From NCBI GenBank assembly GCA_016390365.1, contig GCA_016390365.1_3043.1: a DNA stretch of 64,000 bases. The stretch is one strand, 5' to 3'. The notes beneath the pieces are model-generated. The model was given only the letters and a program-made list of their open reading frames with translations. It made no database searches and was not told where the DNA came from. Made by a program: the position numbers and the translations under genes. Below, in pieces: positions 2,565 through 8,203 of this stretch (the first letter of the stretch is position 1; every line of letters starts with the position of its first letter). Source of the DNA: a phage.

Positions 2565-3041
2565 ATGAAATCATATGCTCAATTTTTAAATGAAGCGGTG
2601 TTAAATGAAGCATCTAGCACTGAAATTCAAGCTGTTGCAAAAGCTGCCATTGCCGCGGGTAAATATTCCTATAAAGATGCTTCCGATGAATCACGATTCC
2701 AATTTGCTCGTGATATGAAAGCCGAAGGATTTACAGGGAATGCAGTTAGTATGGCTTGGAAAAGTTTAGTTGCTACTGGAGCTGCTTTTGCAAAGGCTTC
2801 AGGTAAACCTGCTCCTAAGGCTGATCCTAAAGCAGCACAAGAAAAAAAAAATATTGCTAAAGGAATTATCTCTAGGTATGAAGCAATTCTTAAAGAACTT
2901 TTGATAATCAAAACTGAAGGCCAAAAGCTAGCTCGTGCTTATAGTTTCAAAGATAACCCACATGTTCACTCTCTTGAATATGTTGAAGACATCCAAAAAA
3001 TTATTAAAGACCGCATTTGGTCTGCTAAACAAATCAAATAA
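2565..3041 (+). CDS. internal-protein-like protein with capsid-targeting-like N-terminus
   Basis: N-terminus MKSYAQFLNEA resembles the T4 IP targeting sequence MKTYQEFIAEA; Ala/Lys-rich; late promoter upstream; AGGA RBS. Confidence 0.55.
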   Translation: MKSYAQFLNEAVLNEASSTEIQAVAKAAIAAGKYSYKDASDESRFQFARDMKAEGFTGNAVSMAWKSLVATGAAFAKASGKPAPKADPKAAQEKKNIAKGIISRYEAILKELLIIKTEGQKLARAYSFKDNPHVHSLEYVEDIQKIIKDRIWSAKQIK

Positions 3042-3048
3042 CATTCTT

Positions 3049-3076
3049 AGCCCCAGCCGAAAGGTTGGGGCTTTTT
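3049..3076 (+). terminator. intrinsic terminator, near-copy of 2491-2518
   Basis: AGCCCCAGCC-GAAA-GGTTGGGGCT then TTTTT. Confidence 0.7.
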
Positions 3077-3194
3077 GGTATCTAGGCCTTTCCGGGCCTC
3101 TCTGGGCATCATTTAGTTTATACCCTTTATAATATATTATCCTACCTTTTAATTGTCCCTCCTGACCCTAGAATTCCCTAAAACTTTTTAAAAA

Positions 3195-3264
3195 ATTTTT
3201 TCACAAAACTGTTTACATCCCTGTTCTTCCATGGTACTATACAACTATCAACTACTGATACAGA
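3195..3264 (+). promoter_or_regulatory. early promoter cassette (promoter-stem-loop type), copy 1
   Basis: -35 GTTTAC 3211-3216, 18 nt spacer, -10 TACTAT 3235-3240; 70 nt identical to 44641-44710. Confidence 0.6.
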
Positions 3265-3283
3265 AAACAATTTGGAGAATGAA

Positions 3284-3547
3284 ATGGATAATTACGGCGA
3301 ACTGTTCAACTTCTTTATGAAATGTGTTTCAGAAGATTTCGGTCGTACAGTGAATGATATTAAAGTTATCGGTCCTGATCATCCGATGTTTGAAACTTAC
3401 GCAGTAATGGGTAATGAAGACGGTCAGTGGTATACTGTAAAGGTTGTGATTAACATGTTCACGGCAGAAGGTTATGTTAAACTGTCTTCTAAAGTTTACC
3501 ATGATAACGACGAAATCGCAGAAGAATATTTCAATAATATGAAATAA
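3284..3547 (+). CDS. hypothetical protein
   Basis: ATG 3284 after GGAG RBS (track start is TTG 3272). Confidence 0.55.
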   Translation: MDNYGELFNFFMKCVSEDFGRTVNDIKVIGPDHPMFETYAVMGNEDGQWYTVKVVINMFTAEGYVKLSSKVYHDNDEIAEEYFNNMK

Positions 3548-3616
3548 TTGTGTACAAACACCAAGGACGGTGTTATTATAGACTTATCAAAAACAAATAC
3601 AGAAACGGAGAAATAA

Positions 3617-3793
3617 ATGACTACTTTAATTATTTGGTTCGACGAAAATGAAGAAACATACTGCGTGAACATTGGCGAAAGCCCAATGCCAGAATTTGAA
3701 TCTTCAGATAAAAACTCGGTTGTATCTTGGGCTGAAGGTTATAAAGCAGCAAAAGGCGATGTTGAAATAGTTTACAAACTATCCGGAGTATAA
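3617..3793 (+). CDS. hypothetical small acidic protein (58 aa)
   Basis: ATG 3617 with GGAG RBS 6 nt upstream; below the track size cutoff. Confidence 0.45.
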   Translation: MTTLIIWFDENEETYCVNIGESPMPEFESSDKNSVVSWAEGYKAAKGDVEIVYKLSGV

Positions 3794-3836
3794 TACTCTC
3801 GTGGATTTTAAATCTTAATTAACCTAAGGAAATACT

Positions 3837-4430
3837 ATGAACACACTGAAGAAAATTGTTGAGTTTATTCGCACTAAACTTGGTTCTGCTATGGCTAAAA
3901 ATCTATCTGTTGAAGAGCAGTATACCGCTGCGGCAGCAAAACTACTTGATAAGATTAAAGACCTAAAAACTGCTTCCGTTAAATCTATTAATGAAGAAAA
4001 ACGTATTCGTGAACTTATTGTCGAAAAGAATCGACAAGCCGAATCAAAAGAGCGCGAAATTCGCAAGCTTCTTTCCGAAGGTCAAGATGTAACAATGCAT
4101 GCTAAACTCGGTTTACTATATCGTCGAACAGCTGAGCAGTTGACTACTAAGGCTGACGGTTATGCTGAAATGCGAATTGAAATCGCCAAGAAAGTAGTTG
4201 AGTTAGATGATGCTCGTCAAGAACTTGCGGTTAAATTGGAATATATCCGTGAAACTCGTGCAGCAAATGCCCTTGGAATTAGTACTGCCGATGATGTAGT
4301 TGAAATTGCAGCACTGACTAAGGTTGATATTGAAGATACCCTTGCTCGAGTTGAAACCTTTAACGGTAATATTTCTGGGGTTGAAACTACCTCTGCCGAT
4401 GTTCAGGAATACATTAATTCTCTGAAATAA
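3837..4430 (+). CDS. hypothetical coiled-coil protein
   Basis: AGGA RBS; heptad-rich Lys/Glu/Ala sequence. Confidence 0.55.
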
Positions 4431-4471
4431 TGATAAGGGGCTTCGGCCCCTTATACTTGGAGTAAATAGGA

Positions 4472-5086
4472 ATGAAAATGAAAATGCAAAGTGATTTCAA
4501 TTCAATGTTTGAAGAGTTCCAAAGACAGGTTGATGTTCCAGACCAATTACTAAATGCTCTTAAACGCATGGCAGAAGGACGTAATTATTATTGGGGGTCT
4601 TCATATGAAACTGATGAAAGCCTTTCCGGAAGATTTTCTAGAGGTAAAAAGTCTTTAATACGTCCTGGAATACTCATTAACAGTATTGAATCAATTCATT
4701 CATTGACGTGTGATTTTGATGTTGAATTTACTGATTTCATTTCTCCTGAATGGACGGTTTGTTATTTAAACGACGATTATGATTATCTTGGCGTTTATAG
4801 TTTAAGTGATGCATGGTTTAAACGTAATTTACAAAAATCAAATTTATTTTATATTGATACTACGGTAAAATTTCAGGGAAAGAAATATTTCTTTACTCTT
4901 ATAGTTGACTCTGAAACAAAATATGAAAATAAGCGTATTCTTAGTAAAAAGAATATCTTAACTATTGTTGATGATCTTTTTGATAAATTCGTAGAAAATC
5001 CCAATTTTGAAAGCGATTTATTATTAGAAAAATTTGTTAAGGAATGTAGAGAATATGTCAAAGCCATCACTATACCTTCCAAGTAA
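4472..5086 (+). CDS. hypothetical protein
   Basis: ATG 4472 with GGAG RBS; C-terminus encoded by the junction element shared with the next three genes. Confidence 0.55.
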   Translation: MKMKMQSDFNSMFEEFQRQVDVPDQLLNALKRMAEGRNYYWGSSYETDESLSGRFSRGKKSLIRPGILINSIESIHSLTCDFDVEFTDFISPEWTVCYLNDDYDYLGVYSLSDAWFKRNLQKSNLFYIDTTVKFQGKKYFFTLIVDSETKYENKRILSKKNILTIVDDLFDKFVENPNFESDLLLEKFVKECREYVKAITIPSK

Positions 5087-5447
5087 ACCTGTGAAGTATG
5101 AACCAAAGCGTCAGCTAATTTCTACTGATGTATTAGTAGGTCCTGTGACAGCTGTATCATTTATAATCCTAATGATTATTGGAATAGTTATAGATGTTAC
5201 TACTGATATTGAATCAGACGCAGTATTTCTGTTAGTATTAATTCTTCCATTAGTAGTTCCATTTTTATTAGTACCTGTAAATTGGGTAGGATACTGGTAT
5301 CAAGGAAGACACTATCGTAAACGCGTACGCGAATGGAAAGCTCAGTGTAAAAAGATTAAAAAGGAACATCAGCTTAAACTTGCTGCGTATGAATTTAATG
5401 AAATTATGAAATTTGTTAAGGAATCACGATGCAAAAGCCAAAACTAA
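5055..5447 (+). CDS. small membrane protein, paralog 1 of 3
   Basis: ATG 5055 (track start is TTG 5034); hydrophobic helices; C-terminal FVKESRCK motif. Confidence 0.5.
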   Translation: MSKPSLYLPSKPVKYEPKRQLISTDVLVGPVTAVSFIILMIIGIVIDVTTDIESDAVFLLVLILPLVVPFLLVPVNWVGYWYQGRHYRKRVREWKAQCKKIKKEHQLKLAAYEFNEIMKFVKESRCKSQN

Positions 5448-5791
5448 ATAAAGTCAAATATTCGTTTCCAGAGGCACTATTAATTCTTGTCATATCAGCA
5501 TTTGCAGCTCTTGCAGGTAGTCTTATTGGATTAATGATTGACTGTCTTATTTTAAACATCGACGGCACAGTAAATATAACAGAAGTTTGGAGTGAGCTTT
5601 GTTATACTAAAATTATTTCATTGTTTTCATTCTTTGGTATCATTTTATATTTTCATTATGATAATTTTAAAATAAATTGGCAAAGAAAAAAGGATTACAA
5701 AATACAATTAAAAGAATATAATAACTACATGTCTTATATTGAAAAAGAATCAATGGAAGAGTTTGTGAGTGATTGCAGGAAAATTAAATGA
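5429..5791 (+). CDS. small membrane protein, paralog 2 of 3
   Basis: AGGA RBS; two hydrophobic helices; C-terminal FVSDCRKIK. Confidence 0.5.
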   Translation: MQKPKLNKVKYSFPEALLILVISAFAALAGSLIGLMIDCLILNIDGTVNITEVWSELCYTKIISLFSFFGIILYFHYDNFKINWQRKKDYKIQLKEYNNYMSYIEKESMEEFVSDCRKIK

Positions 5792-6276
5792 TTTTAAAAA
5801 CTCGCTGGTATGATTTAGATGATGGAGATGATGGCATTCCAGTTGATAGAGTTGATTGGAATGGCTGTTCCGAAGATATGAAAAATTTGTTGATTAGGGA
5901 GTTTAGAATGGGATATCAAGCAGTTAAGCCATCTACTGTAACAGACGATAAATTCGTTTGTATTCAAAACGGTCGTGCTAAGTTAACGAACGCTGAATGG
6001 TTTACGGATAAGAATATGCTTCTGTGGTATATCATTAGTCTTCCTGCGTCATCATTCGTATTTTACTTCTTTGGAAAAAATCCAATGGACAGAATAGGAG
6101 ATTGGGCTCTTTGTACTATATTTGTTAATATTTTTACTGCAGCAATATTATCCGGAATATGGTGTGTGTTCATTGAAATGCCATGGCGGTTACGCAGACA
6201 ACAAAAGATTTTTGATGAAAAGAAATATGCTCAAAATTTAAATAACTTTATCACTGAATGCAGGAAATTAAAATGA
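5788..6276 (+). CDS. small membrane protein, paralog 3 of 3
   Basis: ATG overlaps previous stop; hydrophobic helices; C-terminal FITECRKLK. Confidence 0.5.
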   Translation: MILKTRWYDLDDGDDGIPVDRVDWNGCSEDMKNLLIREFRMGYQAVKPSTVTDDKFVCIQNGRAKLTNAEWFTDKNMLLWYIISLPASSFVFYFFGKNPMDRIGDWALCTIFVNIFTAAILSGIWCVFIEMPWRLRRQQKIFDEKKYAQNLNNFITECRKLK

Positions 6277-6713
6277 AAACATTATCAGCTGGTATTATCT
6301 TTATGACAGAAGATAAAGATTTATTTATGGGTCGGGTTACTGGTTCTCGTAAGCCTGGAATGATGGCACATCGTTGGGATATTCCAAAGGGCCGCGTAGA
6401 AAATTCTGATTTAAGCGCACTAGATGCAGCACGAAGAGAATGCTTAGAAGAGACTGGTTTTAGCAATTATAATCCAGACCTTCTAGAAGACCTAGGTGTA
6501 TTTAAATATTCTAGTAATAAAGACTTACAGTTATTTTATTATACGATTCCAGTAGAGCATGAGATGTTCAGAAATTGCTATTGTGAGTCTTATTTTGAAA
6601 ATAAAGATGGCGTTATGATTCCAGAGATGGATGCTTTTGCTCTTATTCCTCGTACTCAGTGGCAATATGTGATGGGTCCTTCACTTTACCGAATAATGAA
6701 CAACCTCTTTTAA
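6258..6713 (+). CDS. nudE: Nudix hydrolase
   Basis: Nudix box GRVENSDLSALDAARRECLEETGF; alternative start ATG 6273 has the better RBS. Confidence 0.8.
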   Translation: MQEIKMKTLSAGIIFMTEDKDLFMGRVTGSRKPGMMAHRWDIPKGRVENSDLSALDAARRECLEETGFSNYNPDLLEDLGVFKYSSNKDLQLFYYTIPVEHEMFRNCYCESYFENKDGVMIPEMDAFALIPRTQWQYVMGPSLYRIMNNLF

Positions 6714-7244
<531 letters not shown>

Positions 7245-7248
7245 AGTT

Positions 7249-7278
7249 GTTTACTTTCTCCTAGAATTGTGATAGTAT
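7249..7278 (+). promoter_or_regulatory. early promoter
   Basis: -35 GTTTAC 7249-7254, 18 nt spacer, -10 TAGTAT. Confidence 0.5.
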
Positions 7279-7303
7279 ATTCACAGTTAATTGGAGGGAT
7301 AAA

Positions 7304-7720
7304 ATGACTCGTATTAATTTGACTTTAGTATCTGAACTTGCTGATCAACATTTAATCGCAGAATACCGTGAATTGCCACGTGTTTTTGGTATAGTTCGTA
7401 AACACGTGGCAAATGGTAAACGGGTTAAAGATTTTAAAATATCTTCCGAGTTTATTTTAGGTTCTGGTCATGTCACGTTCTTTTACGATAAGTTAGAATT
7501 TTTGCGAAAGCGTCAATCAGACATTATAACGGAATGCTTAAAACGTGGGTTTAGTATAAAAGATACTGAAGTTCCTGACATCAGCGATATTCCAGCAGAA
7601 TGGAAAAATGATTATAACCCATGCAAATCGGCTATTAAATTGAGTCAACAACGACTCGATGAAAAAATTTTAATGAAGCCACACTGGTATAAATACTACG
7701 GCAAAAATATTTACATTTAA
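7304..7720 (+). CDS. denV: endonuclease V, pyrimidine-dimer DNA glycosylase
   Basis: 138 aa; N-terminus [27 protein letters not shown] as in T4 endonuclease V. Confidence 0.9.
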
Positions 7721-7729
7721 AGGAAACAC

Positions 7730-8203
7730 ATGAAAACATATCAAGAATTTATCACTGAAGCAGCTATTAATTCTCAAATTATTGCTGAATCTTTTACTGA
7801 TCTTTTGAAATTTAAAAAAGGTCAAAAAATCACTGCTGTATTAGATGATGGTACAGAAGTTGAGATGGATGTACAGGGATATAATTATGCAGTAGATGGA
7901 AAACTGTATAATAAATCTCATGCTAAATTTGATTCATTTGACGATTTTGTTAATACAGTTGAAGATGAAAAAACTCGTAGATCCATTGCAACTGGCGACG
8001 CTAAGGTTCTTATGGCACACGGTCATGAACGTATCCGCGCCAAACAGAATAAAATGGGCGAAGATAATTTTGCATTAGTTGGTTATCAATCTGGTAAACA
8101 AACTTATGGTTATCAGCGTACTGCTACCATGTATAATAAAAATGGTAAAATCGCTTTCGTGAATAGCAAAGGCTCTATTCAGTACGTCAAATCATTCAAA
8201 TAA
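7730..8203 (+). CDS. internal protein (IPII/IPIII-like) with capsid-targeting sequence
   Basis: N-terminus MKTYQEFITEA matches the T4 IP targeting sequence; 157 aa. Confidence 0.7.
   Translation: MKTYQEFITEAAINSQIIAESFTDLLKFKKGQKITAVLDDGTEVEMDVQGYNYAVDGKLYNKSHAKFDSFDDFVNTVEDEKTRRSIATGDAKVLMAHGHERIRAKQNKMGEDNFALVGYQSGKQTYGYQRTATMYNKNGKIAFVNSKGSIQYVKSFK

Follow-up and report, generated by a model that had tools for sequence, protein, structure and literature searches.

A shared C-terminal peptide motif as a probable start signal and loss joint in the overlapping e.5-e.2 gene array of T4-like phages

A short C-terminal motif, F-[VI]-x-[ED]-[CS]-R, is common to four consecutive genes of a T4-like phage, as a preliminary description of this DNA had claimed from its letters alone. 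The genes are orthologous to T4 e.5, e.4, e.3 and e.2, the motif lies 3-11 codons before each stop, and the DNA encoding it overlaps the ribosome-binding site and start of whichever gene follows. The best explanation, which as a whole we hold to be probable, is that these genes form an old packed array in which a selected C-terminal motif doubles as a start signal and as a joint for gene loss, and in which, as we infer, the motif acts as a docking tip. The genes themselves are known in T4; neither the function of T4 e.2-e.5 nor the shared C-terminal motif is described in the records or full-text literature searched.

The source phage of the window (by which we mean the whole stretch of 64,000 nucleotides analysed here) is a Tequatrovirus, and the region of the array shares 98% DNA identity with Shigella phage Sf21. 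It is co-linear with T4 (NC_000866) from e.6 through denV, the gene order and strand between e.6 and nudE-e-denV matching both NC_000866 and OK076929. Each of the four proteins matched a PHROG profile over its whole length, with E values of 3e-110 for e.5 (phrog_2607), 2e-69 for e.4 (phrog_2604), 2e-57 for e.3 (phrog_2330) and 3e-76 for e.2 (phrog_2203), and amino-acid identity to T4 was 82-96% across e.5, e.4 and e.3, with e.5 at 96%. The four genes are thus direct orthologues, in the same order, of T4 msp4-msp7 (record L13089; hypothetical or predicted membrane proteins), with the difference that e.2 is frameshifted in T4 and intact in the window. For e.5, the true start may be 4478 instead of 4472, which would give a protein of 202 aa beginning MKMQSDF, in line with the T4 annotation. 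Pfam, NCBIfam and PADLOC gave no significant match for e.5, e.4, e.3, e.2 or e.6, nor did Pfam match any of ten related proteins from other genera, and the locus exposed many annotation errors in public records.

As listed in Table 1, the genes are packed in an operon-like manner, successive overlaps being 32, 19, 4 and 4 nt: the last 32 nt of e.5 are shared, in a different frame, with e.4, the ATG of e.3 (5429) begins within the arginine codon of the second motif copy, and the third and fourth copies run into ATGA stop/start overlaps with e.2 and nudE, respectively. The stem-loop between e.6 and e.5 is the upstream boundary of the e.5-to-nudE unit; a terminator scan scored this hairpin, but on the minus strand, and T4 record L13089 annotates its equivalent. 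The same record annotates promoters only ahead of e.8-e.6, which places the block downstream of them, and none inside msp4-msp8. Scanning positions 3000-7400 of the window, we found 20 promoter-like sites against 17.9 in shuffled sequences, that is, no excess, and no terminator-like hairpin inside the array, while upstream of e.6 a T4-like -35 element is present with the wrong spacing to TATAAT.

Table 1. Features of the e.6-nudE region (positions in the window)
Feature	Position	Strand	Evidence or remark
e.6 orthologue, 197 aa	3837..4430	+	phrog_1203, E 1e-87; 99% amino-acid identity to T4 e.6
G+C-rich stem-loop GGGGCTTCGGCCCC between e.6 and e.5	4433..4454	+	sequence; terminator scan
e.5 orthologue, 204 aa, soluble, ending ...LEKFVKECREYVKAITIPSK before the stop	4472..5086	+	phrog_2607; hydropathy
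Motif copy 1, L-E-K-F-V-K-E-C-R	5024..5050	+	holds 16-mer repeat (5030-5045) and AAGGAA for e.4
e.4 orthologue, 130 aa, two transmembrane segments (28-46, 57-75), ending ...IMKFVKESRCKSQN before the stop	5055..5447	+	phrog_2604; hydropathy
Motif copy 2, I-M-K-F-V-K-E-S-R	5403..5429	+	holds 16-mer repeat (5409-5424)
e.3 orthologue, 120 aa, ending ...MEEFVSDCRKIK before the stop	5429..5791	+	phrog_2330; AlphaFold2
Motif copy 3 and junction, M-E-E-F-V-S-D-C-R-K-I-K-stop	5753..5791	+	left arm of 30-nt repeat (5762-5791)
e.2 orthologue, 162 aa, intact, ending ...LNNFITECRKLK before the stop	5788..6276	+	phrog_2203; hydropathy
Motif copy 4 and junction, L-N-N-F-I-T-E-C-R-K-L-K-stop	6238..6276	+	right arm of 30-nt repeat (6247-6276)
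nudE, Nudix hydrolase, downstream array boundary	6273..6713	+	Pfam NUDIX, E 1e-13; T4 annotation

The motif is specific for these gene ends. A six-frame translation of the 64-kb window contains F[VI]x[ED][CS]R five times, four of them at gene ends, as against 0.37 +/- 0.65 occurrences in base shuffles, and with a nine-residue weight matrix the four genes score 20-28 bits, whereas no other site of the window exceeds 12 bits. A scan of about 134 kb of T4 located the motif in e.5, e.4 and e.3 and in what remains of e.2, and nowhere else. Downstream of e.6 in 10 Straboviridae genera we collected 31 genes with the C-terminal motif (core F-I-x-x-C-R), a survey that outside Tequatrovirus carries some ascertainment bias because the pattern was derived from the data; the genera named among these instances are Tequatro-, Mosig-, Dhaka-, Jiaoda-, Karam-, Teguna-, Biquarta-, Pseudoteven- and Ceceduovirus. 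At least ten genera of T4-like phages keep the motif at this locus, with one to six motif-bearing genes each, and the gene following e.6 bears it in all ten genera examined. In one related locus (L017), a motif-like match upstream of e.6 is explained by an ordinary gene end and ribosome-binding site read in the wrong frame, the unrelated gene there ending ...TGCAGGAAAACAAAATTTAAATG and giving 'CRK' out of frame.

Several features of the 31 instances bear on the level at which the motif is maintained. Phenylalanine is retained in 29/31, isoleucine or valine in 31/31, cysteine in 25/31 and arginine in 26/31, and where cysteine is replaced, it is solely by I, V, M or S. The consensus reads hydrophobic-(E/N)-x-F-I-x-(E/Y)-C-R, whose positions -3, 0, +1 and +4 correspond to an i, i+3, i+4, i+7 hydrophobic face. 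The codons vary: TTT 18 and TTC 11 times for phenylalanine, TGT 11 and TGC 14 times for cysteine, and AGA 9, CGT 6, CGA 5, AGG 5 and CGC 1 times for arginine. Outside the motif, the proteins have diverged to 20% identity or less. Since synonymous codons vary and the motif is kept despite divergence elsewhere, the main constraint lies on the protein and not on the DNA. The use of five arginine, both cysteine and both phenylalanine codons thus runs against the earlier description of the repeat as primarily a DNA element, and the motif is, as judged from these substitution patterns, a peptide under selection at the amino-acid level. A point against the favoured reading is that, among e.3 orthologues, conservation of the motif region does not clearly exceed that of the remaining cytoplasmic helix.

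The junction DNA carries more than the motif. An exact 16-mer, AAATTTGTTAAGGAAT, begins at both 5030 and 5409, and the 30-mers at 5762 and 6247 agree in 24/30 positions; dinucleotide shuffling yielded no exact 16-mer in 300 trials (maximum 15) and reached a 24/30 repeat in 2 of 100, while 15 repeat families of 12-30 nt are present within 1.95 kb. The ATG of the next gene lies -2 to +9 nt from the end of the arginine codon, and inside the motif there is a Shine-Dalgarno-like AAGGAA (K-E codons) or AGGAAA (R-K codons). For example, AAGGAA in the first copy serves e.4, with its ATG at 5055, and TGCAGGAAA in the third is a Shine-Dalgarno-like sequence. Both the repeats and the ATG positions confirm the preliminary view that the junctions are repeats overlapping the next gene's ribosome-binding site and start. 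In part, the identity of the junction DNA arises from codon bias and the Shine-Dalgarno requirement. The motif is not always a ribosome-binding site, the exceptions being Dhakavirus orf131, RB43 and Aeromonas phages, in which it lies 7-25 residues before the stop. No Rfam match was found at the junctions. Compared over 27 nt, orthologous junctions are identical at 21/27 and 20/27 positions versus 19/27 for paralogous ones. The Tequatrovirus e.5 and e.4 endings (KFVKE) are closer to each other than to their Mosigvirus versions, as are the e.3 and e.2 tails (CRKIK and CRKLK), and these likenesses hint at occasional gene conversion between Tequatrovirus junctions, although orthologous junctions are still the closer ones.

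Comparison of related genomes revealed how cassettes leave the array. About 10% of Tequatrovirus records are without e.2. The gene is missing from T2, PP01, CE1, ZN18 and about 50 others, and the e.3/nudE junction in these phages consists of the left half of the e.3/e.2 junction and the right half of the e.2/nudE junction, with the crossover site within the 9-nt TGCAGGAAA. Since T4 e.2 is a frameshifted pseudogene (102 aa plus remnant) and the gene is missing from this fraction of records, e.2 appears dispensable. Similarly, Dhakavirus JS98, compared with a related locus (L015), is without the e.4-like cassette found in IMG/VR relatives and again has a hybrid junction, formed by a crossover in the 7-nt GAGGTTC. 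As reconstructed from these genomes, natural exact removal of a cassette between junctions is shown in at least two genera. Breaks outside the junctions were also found: UFV11 carries an in-frame e.4::e.2 chimera whose breakpoint lies inside the first transmembrane segment, and P0064 has an e.4 variant without both transmembrane segments. The proposal that this is an array expandable by unequal crossing-over therefore stands only in part. The cassette number does vary from 1 to 6 and two exact losses were identified, but no recent duplication or cassette gain was seen among the compared relatives, only losses, and crossovers within 5-9 nt of identity amount to short-homology deletion, not to classical unequal crossing-over. 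Because 5-9 nt suffices and breakpoints also occur elsewhere, as in UFV11, the junction is a favoured and not a dedicated breakpoint.

Deletions in the classical T4 rII and e-gene studies reportedly have their end points in 5-10 nt direct repeats, and the 9-nt and 7-nt crossovers described above fit this behaviour. Unlike in other T4 short-repeat deletions, the window repeats stand at equivalent points of successive genes, and consequently recombination between them cleanly removes a single gene and leaves a hybrid junction that is functional.

Hydropathy analysis bore out that three of the four proteins have two membrane helices, with two transmembrane segments each in e.4, e.3 and e.2 (peaks of 1.7-3.0) and none in e.5. 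The loops DVTTDIESDA and NIDGTVNITEVWSE contain no K or R, and positive charges flank the N- and C-terminal sides of the hairpins. Thus, e.4, e.3 and e.2 are predicted to be inner-membrane hairpins with both ends cytoplasmic. The AlphaFold2 model of e.3 (pLDDT 85) agrees with two transmembrane segments, the first transmembrane helix spanning residues 16-42 and the second being an unbroken helix, 58-119, that continues into the motif. In e.2, about 75 aa of soluble N-terminal domain precede the two segments. In the e.5 model, with a pLDDT of only 58, a C-terminal helix (180-196) holds the motif. Foldseek found no meaningful match of the e.5 model in the PDB (best E 0.013, TM 0.17), and among viral structures the e.3 model matched solely uncharacterised T4-like hairpin proteins.

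Kinship among the cassettes is uneven. We found 21% identity between e.3 and e.4 (BLASTP E 0.003 over 111 aa; E 0.0017 for e.3 against the e.4-family PHROG profile), and with hhalign Dhakavirus orf130 matched e.3 (98%) and e.4 (89%) over its full length, so by similarity beyond the motif these three are, at the level of sequence, tandem paralogues, and ancient ones. In all pairs besides orf130 with e.3 or e.4, the hhalign match was confined to the last 10-33 residues, and full-length kinship of all four window genes is absent, e.5 and e.2 matching the others only over this stretch. 133c resembles the e.2 family (E 0.0036), and PHROG cross-matches connect the e.5-position proteins across genera. 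The rates of change differ as well: dN/dS versus T4 is 0.47 for e.3 and 0.50 for e.4 as against 0.02 for e.6, and 0.02-0.10 over e.6, e.5 and nudE. Changes in e.3 and e.4 are concentrated in the first transmembrane helix and loop, 19 of the 23 changes in e.4 falling within residues 1-76. An exhaustive profile search with e.3 plus e.4 against 1.84 billion representatives returned 8 clusters only, therefore nothing else in these two proteins is recognisably conserved; a word-indexed homologue search reached only close Tequatrovirus relatives, and a related-locus search with e.3 orthologues gave 14 loci.

By tblastn, e.6, the constant neighbour of the array, has matches in 1100 phage records, and it showed no significant match to known families. 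A relation to PspA/Vipp1 (IM30, ESCRT-III-like) was considered and rejected, as there was no Pfam match, hhalign against E. coli PspA gave a probability of 0.2%, and a PDB profile search listed Vipp1 only at E 1.7-3.1. On the basis of synteny and guilt by association, we propose e.6 as a candidate partner of the motif.

Other explanations of the shared ending have to be weighed against this evidence. That the similarity is due to chance might be argued from the post hoc definition of the pattern and from the AT-rich sequence, which inflates short repeats and could account for the 15 families in 1.95 kb; four consecutive matching gene ends against 0.37 occurrences expected in 64 kb, the weight-matrix scores, the T4 scan, the dinucleotide shuffles of the repeats and the recurrence at the same locus in ten genera refute it and leave it a negligible probability. 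A serious alternative, even if we think it unlikely, is that the genes are simply an old tandem family of the usual kind within a hyperplastic region, whose inherited ending is held in place mainly by the overlap with the next ribosome-binding site and start and has neither a peptide function of its own nor a special part in recombination. It would suit the full-length homology of e.3, e.4 and orf130, the resemblance of 133c to e.2, the quality of AAGGAA and AGGAAA within the motif as Shine-Dalgarno sequences, the short-homology deletions found elsewhere (UFV11, P0064) and the known plasticity of T4-type genomes (PMC2839356). Under such a scheme, however, one would not expect F, I, C and R to persist while the Shine-Dalgarno codons differ from member to member (K-E, E-E, R-K) and sometimes lie outside the motif; the F and I codons belong to no ribosome-binding site, and the motif is kept where no other similarity is detectable, in some genera up to 25 residues before the stop. 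Distinctly unlikely, in our judgement, is that selection acts on an element of the DNA or RNA, either a recombination joint or a translational-coupling signal comparable to integron attC sites or PeSL cassettes, with the peptide as its by-product. The exact 16-mer and the 24/30 repeat at equivalent gene ends, the two clean losses with hybrid junctions, the ATGA overlaps and the likeness of paralogous Tequatrovirus endings, with its hint of gene conversion, all point that way, but between genera the junction nucleotides have low identity while the amino acids are kept, and orthologous junctions are closer than paralogous ones. Moreover, there is no promoter-plus-stem-loop per cassette, no Rfam match and no recombinase nearby, and the homology is just 5-9 nt.

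In T4-type genomes, modules are also shuffled by way of PeSL (promoter-early stem-loop) cassettes (Arbiol et al. 2010, PMC2839356; Comeau et al. 2014, PMC4122927), and there, too, repeated short boundary sequences in hyperplastic regions let whole small genes leave or enter with their neighbours undamaged. They are, however, non-coding promoter-plus-terminator units between genes, whereas the window repeat is coding sequence plus ribosome-binding site within one operon, the genes overlap, and the sole stem-loop lies upstream of e.5 instead of each cassette having an early promoter and a stem-loop. In contrast to integron attC sites, the junctions are coding sequence with 5-9 nt of microhomology, and none of the six proteins of the e.6-nudE stretch that were scanned gave an integrase-like match. 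A further parallel is offered by the T-even internal protein (IP) genes and their polymorphic loci (Repoila et al. 1994, as cited in PMC2839356), where otherwise unrelated proteins at a variable T4 locus have one short terminal peptide in common, encoded by a conserved stretch usable as a recombination point for gene swaps. Another idea is that the motif is a processing or targeting signal akin to the T4 capsid targeting sequence (MKTYQEFIAE), by which the e.x proteins would be trimmed or recruited at the membrane by the head-assembly machinery. E-F-I-(A/T)-E is common to both, internal-protein-like ORFs of the window begin MKTYQEFITEA (7730) and MKSYAQFLNEA (2565), and in the T4 motif scan the seventh-ranking site is the N-terminus of ipII; the cleavage consensus of the gp21 prohead protease is I-x-E. 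The weak local resemblance (EFIxE) is not significant, since the capsid targeting sequence scores at most 8 bits versus 20-28 for the family. It is also N-terminal, cleaved by the prohead protease and capsid-targeting, whereas the window motif is C-terminal, sits on membrane and soluble proteins and does not have the form of the M-K-x-Y-x-x-F-(I/L)-x-E leader; C-R is without counterpart, and the glutamate at +3 is Y, D, S, Q or another residue in many members. Furthermore, T4 head assembly is late, and the block lies downstream of the promoters ahead of e.8-e.6, which are early promoters. We therefore reject this link as very improbable.

Returning to the reading that we favour, e.5-e.4-e.3-e.2 is an old, tightly packed array of overlapping frames between e.6 and nudE, in which an amphipathic-helix motif sits either on a soluble domain (e.5) or at the predicted cytoplasmic end of a membrane hairpin (e.4, e.3, e.2). 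The codons of the motif also carry a Shine-Dalgarno-like sequence and lie within about 10 nt of the next start. With one short sequence repeated from gene end to gene end, short-homology recombination between two junctions takes out exactly one cassette, and the genes on either side stay in frame and translatable. From conservation, helix geometry and synteny we infer that the motif is the tip of a cytoplasmic docking helix linking the variable anchors and e.5 to a common partner, for which e.6 would be the most obvious choice, or to one another; in the membrane hairpins, this docking helix would stand at the tip of a long stalk on fast-evolving anchors. Given how fast the first transmembrane helix and the loop predicted to be periplasmic evolve, the proteins probably work at the cell envelope, and their role there would be an accessory one depending on the host or on competing phages. 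T4 Imm, Sp and Ac are small early inner-membrane proteins acting at the envelope, and the e.x membrane proteins resemble them in being small and membrane-bound and, putatively, early and dispensable in the laboratory. As to the superinfection exclusion or lysis timing raised in the preliminary description, no sequence similarity to Imm, Sp, rI, holins or PADLOC models was found in the libraries searched, and the likeness is one of functional analogy only.

A bolder version, which we put forward as a long shot, is that F-I-x-x-C-R is a portable docking tag coupling a conserved cytoplasmic hub, most plausibly e.6, to interchangeable, fast-evolving anchors and soluble domains. Since the next gene has its ribosome-binding site and start within the codons of the tag, modules could also be lost, fused or swapped in frame at this joint. 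If true, this would make the locus a protein-level cassette system for envelope-directed functions (counter-defence or the exclusion of competing phages) that T4-like phages of enterobacteria and of Aeromonas have both conserved. T4 e.2-e.6 were sequenced decades ago and stand without an assigned function, and a tag of 6-9 residues provides a handle for finding a common partner; with it, a role might be found for a block of hypothetical genes that over a thousand phage genomes carry, those of therapeutic Tequatrovirus and Mosigvirus strains among them. In addition, the locus shows by natural example how an overlapping protein motif, ribosome-binding site and start codon create preferred in-frame breakpoints, at which accessory genes may be dropped or fused without harm to their neighbours, a mechanism that complements the non-coding PeSL cassettes.

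About 500 Tequatrovirus genomes match the region, whose DNA is 98% identical to that of Shigella phage Sf21. Its genes stand in the T4 order, namely the tRNA cluster, e.8-like, e.6, e.5, e.4, e.3, e.2, nudE, e and denV, so that the finding concerns T4 genes e.5 to e.2. These are already known T4 open reading frames; an old GenBank entry names them msp4-msp7, and no promoter is annotated within the block. The e.5 start of the window reads ATGAAA ATGAAA ATG (4472-4486; MKMKMQ) versus MKMQ in T4; the two differ at the start codon by a 6-nt tandem repeat, and three in-frame starts are possible. An odd tRNA-like ARAGORN call with a two-base anticodon, lacking Rfam confirmation, may be the counterpart of the small stable RNAs (rnaC/rnaD) adjoining the T4 tRNA genes. 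Two ORFs have leaders that look like the capsid-targeting, internal-protein type, and ipII and ipIII of T4 are missing between e and denV in the window phage.

Coordinates of the genes under study and of associated features (window positions unless a related phage locus, L number, is named)
Feature	Location	Remark
tRNA cluster	896-2441	Gln, Leu, Gly, Pro, Ser, Met, Tyr, Asn, Arg
tRNA-like call	2347-2441	
ORF with internal-protein-like leader	2565-3041	starts MKSYAQFLNEA
e.6	3837-4430	
e.5	4472/4478-5086	ends LEKFVKECREYVKAITIPSK
e.4	5055-5447	ends IMKFVKESRCKSQN
e.3	5429-5791	ends MEEFVSDCRKIK
e.2	5788-6276	ends LNNFITECRKLK
nudE	6273-6713	
lysozyme e	6750-7244	
denV	7304-7720	
ORF with internal-protein-like leader	7730-8203	starts MKTYQEFITEA
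T4 e.2	L001, NC_000866 67,491-67,960	compare window 5788-6276
In-frame e.4::e.2 chimera replacing e.4, e.3, e.2	L024:2501-2821	phage UFV11
KP1 gene 111	L029:7886-8194	ends ...LELFIAKCRAK-stop
Unannotated motif ORFs, myPSH1140	L030:5656-6321; 6825-7220	
Unannotated motif ORF, phiR1-RT	L031:5964-6218	
Second tag family	L007:2076-2870; L008:2647-3889; L030:6299-6825; L031:6559-7300	
228-aa protein	L007:4798-5484; L008:6222-6908; L034:3247-3933	ends ...VYLEFPMEGW

The pattern F[VI]x[ED][CS]R had five matches in the six frames of 64 kb, four of which are the four consecutive gene ends, versus 0.37 in shuffled sequence. With a weight matrix the four gene ends scored 20-28 bits and all other window sites at most 12 bits, and on about 134 kb of T4 the motif genes were likewise set apart. 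The junctions, where one gene ends and the next begins, also resemble each other at the DNA level: an exact 16-mer is common to the e.5 and e.4 ends (0 of 300 dinucleotide shuffles reached such a match), and a 24/30 repeat is common to the e.3 and e.2 ends (reached by 2 of 100 shuffles). The motif codons form a Shine-Dalgarno-like AAGGAA or AGGAAA, the distance from the Arg codon to the next gene's ATG is within about 10 nt, and two hydrophobic segments each were found in e.4, e.3 and e.2, with none in e.5. These results bear out the preliminary description, which had proposed a common ending for four successive genes, junction DNA doubling as the ribosome-binding region and start of the next gene, and two-helix membrane proteins as three of the four products. 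We conclude that the finding is real, and that the motif is not a product of chance and has a deep evolutionary history.

Mosigvirus JS09 carries five motif genes, e.5 (FIMECRE..), e.4 (FVKEIRC..), e.3 (FIKECRK), an extra hairpin protein ORF133c (FIKECRGK) and e.2 (FITECRNLR), whose products show 31-58% overall identity to the window proteins, and the Dhakavirus JS98/MX01 endings are FIAECREY.. (orf131), FIKECKS (orf130) and FIEECRK (e.2). Using the conserved e.6 gene as an anchor for further genera, we located motif genes downstream of it in Klebsiella phage KP1 (five), Enterobacter phage myPSH1140 (six, two of them unannotated), Yersinia phage phiR1-RT (three), Aeromonas phage AS-zj (two, with C-I replacing C-R), Aeromonas phage Asfd_1 (one) and RB43 (one). 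KP1 gene 111, which also has a motif end, is located beyond the usual e.6-to-nudE interval, with nudE on one side and the lysozyme gene on the other. Across 31 instances the Phe was retained in 29, I/V in all 31, Cys in 25 and Arg in 26, encoded by TTT/TTC for Phe, TGT/TGC for Cys and AGA, AGG, CGA, CGT or CGC for Arg; the codons that supply the Shine-Dalgarno-like sequence differ among members, and in some it lies outside the motif. Since the residues are kept with varied codons and the source of the Shine-Dalgarno-like sequence varies, the comparison argues that the motif is under selection as a peptide. The DNA repeat, and the fact that it overlaps the ribosome-binding site, follow secondarily from the close packing of genes that have a C-terminal motif.

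The locus had also been read as an expandable array, in which unequal crossing-over at the shared junction adds or removes motif-bearing genes, or cassettes. Motif-bearing genes do vary from one to six per locus, and we found three natural rearrangements. In T2, CE1, PP01, ZN18 and many others, about 50 of about 500 Tequatrovirus records as the record counts suggest, e.2 is missing and an ATGA overlap joins e.3 to nudE; the resulting junction, GAGTTTGTGAGTGATTGCAGGAAATTAAAATGAAAAC, matches the e.3/e.2 junction in its left part and the e.2/nudE junction in its right part, with the crossover in the shared TGCAGGAAA, and the absence is a loss because Mosig- and Dhakavirus carry e.2. In some relatives of Dhakavirus JS98 (L015, L017 and L021), orf131 and orf130 enclose an e.4-like cassette; JS98 is without it and has a hybrid junction with the crossover in GAGGTTCnnAATG, the ribosome-binding site and start codon, and since four genera carry e.4 this absence is likewise a loss. 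In UFV11, which no longer has e.3, residues 1-32 of e.4 continue in frame into e.2 from about its residue 88; the crossover lies at TCATT inside the first transmembrane segment. The junctions therefore act as in-frame breakpoints that cleanly remove one gene, but they are not the sole site of breakage, the crossover homology is 5-9 nt, and no recent duplication of motif genes was found among the loci compared; because of these three points the array reading is only partly supported, its variable copy number and clean losses through hybrid junctions standing and its expansion not.

T4 e.2 itself is a frameshifted pseudogene: 102 aa are encoded, and a further stretch of about 160 nt still specifies the second transmembrane segment and ...NNFITECRKLK. 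In the T4T record it appears as two parts, e.2a and e.2b, whereas the window and most Tequatrovirus genomes have an intact gene (162 aa). A 69-aa e.4 variant, P0064, has lost both transmembrane segments and kept the N-terminus and the motif-bearing cytoplasmic tail.

With regard to kinship, e.3 and e.4 show weak full-length homology (BLASTP E 0.003; PHROG cross-hit) and are bridged by Dhakavirus orf130 (hhalign 98% and 89%), the C-terminal half of e.2 resembles ORF133c, and PHROG cross-hits connect soluble e.5-position proteins across genera (KP1_117 versus the T4 e.5 family, E 1.4e-9); between these groups similarity is confined to the last 10-33 residues. When 1.84 billion representative proteins were searched exhaustively with an e.3/e.4 profile, only eight clusters were returned, all from these phages. 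It looks as if e.6 and a motif-bearing e.5-type protein are an ancient pair; the membrane cassettes are additions, found in phages of enterobacteria.

The charge distribution of e.4, e.3 and e.2 predicts that both termini are cytoplasmic and the periplasmic loop acidic. In the AlphaFold2 model of e.3 (pLDDT 85) the second transmembrane helix is part of one unbroken helix of about 60 residues that bears the motif at its tip, and a low-confidence e.5 model places the motif within the terminal helix too. Because motif positions -3, 0, +1 and +4 form one hydrophobic face and the Cys is swapped only for I, V, M or S, the sequences argue for a role in packing and against one in redox chemistry or metal binding. 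Between the window phage and T4, dN/dS was about 0.5 for e.4 and e.3 versus 0.02-0.10 for e.6, e.5 and nudE, and the e.4/e.3 replacements lie mostly in the loop and the first transmembrane helix. The e.2 gene is disrupted in T4 and missing from T2. The e.6 gene is present in 1100 phage records, with a dN/dS of 0.02, and a search for significant similarity of its product to any known family found none. A profile from seven genera aligned co-linearly with PDB entries of cyanobacterial Vipp1/IM30 over residues 7-138, at a non-significant E of ~2, and hhalign against PspA gave 0.2% probability; a Vipp1/PspA relationship is not supported.

In Mosig-, Dhaka-, Karam- and Tegunavirus the same hyperplastic interval has a second tandem family, of small soluble proteins ending G-x-W-(V/L/A)-S-S-S-x-x-C-stop or, in some, W-Y-x-S-S-C-stop, usually directly followed by TAAGGAA; the locus thus holds another conserved C-terminal tag. 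A conserved 228-aa protein, without a Pfam match, lies directly upstream of e.2 in Mosig-/Dhakavirus and of e.6 in AS-zj, and may belong to the same functional neighbourhood as the motif genes. In public records e.3 is misnamed 'sulfurtransferase' or 'DNA primase', e.6 'host specificity protein' or 'recombination endonuclease', e.4 'major capsid protein' and e.5 'phosphoserine phosphatase', and the start codon assigned to JS09 e.4 and to phiR1-RT g129 is too far downstream.

The closest conceptual parallels are the PeSL cassettes, which are non-coding and mediate modular shuffling (PMC2839356, PMC4122927), and the T-even internal proteins, which have an N-terminal capsid targeting sequence in common and are shuffled at polymorphic loci. 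Unlike in those systems, the e.5-e.2 repeat lies within a single operon and consists of a C-terminal coding motif merged with translation signals; judged by the defining test of each class, the array is neither a PeSL nor an integron cassette, and the motif is not that of a capsid-targeting substrate. The literature searched contained no description of the motif, and a prior mention, for instance in the key T4 reviews, is possible.

We propose that the e.5-e.2 products would be accessory inner-membrane proteins, probably synthesized early in infection, whose envelope-facing part may be under diversifying or relaxed selection and whose cytoplasmic tips may dock to a common partner or to one another. 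Since e.6 precedes the motif genes in 10/10 genera and evolves very slowly, it is, by association, the obvious candidate partner. We regard the e.5-e.2 block as a tandem accessory-gene family with a common terminal tag in a T4 hyperplastic region.
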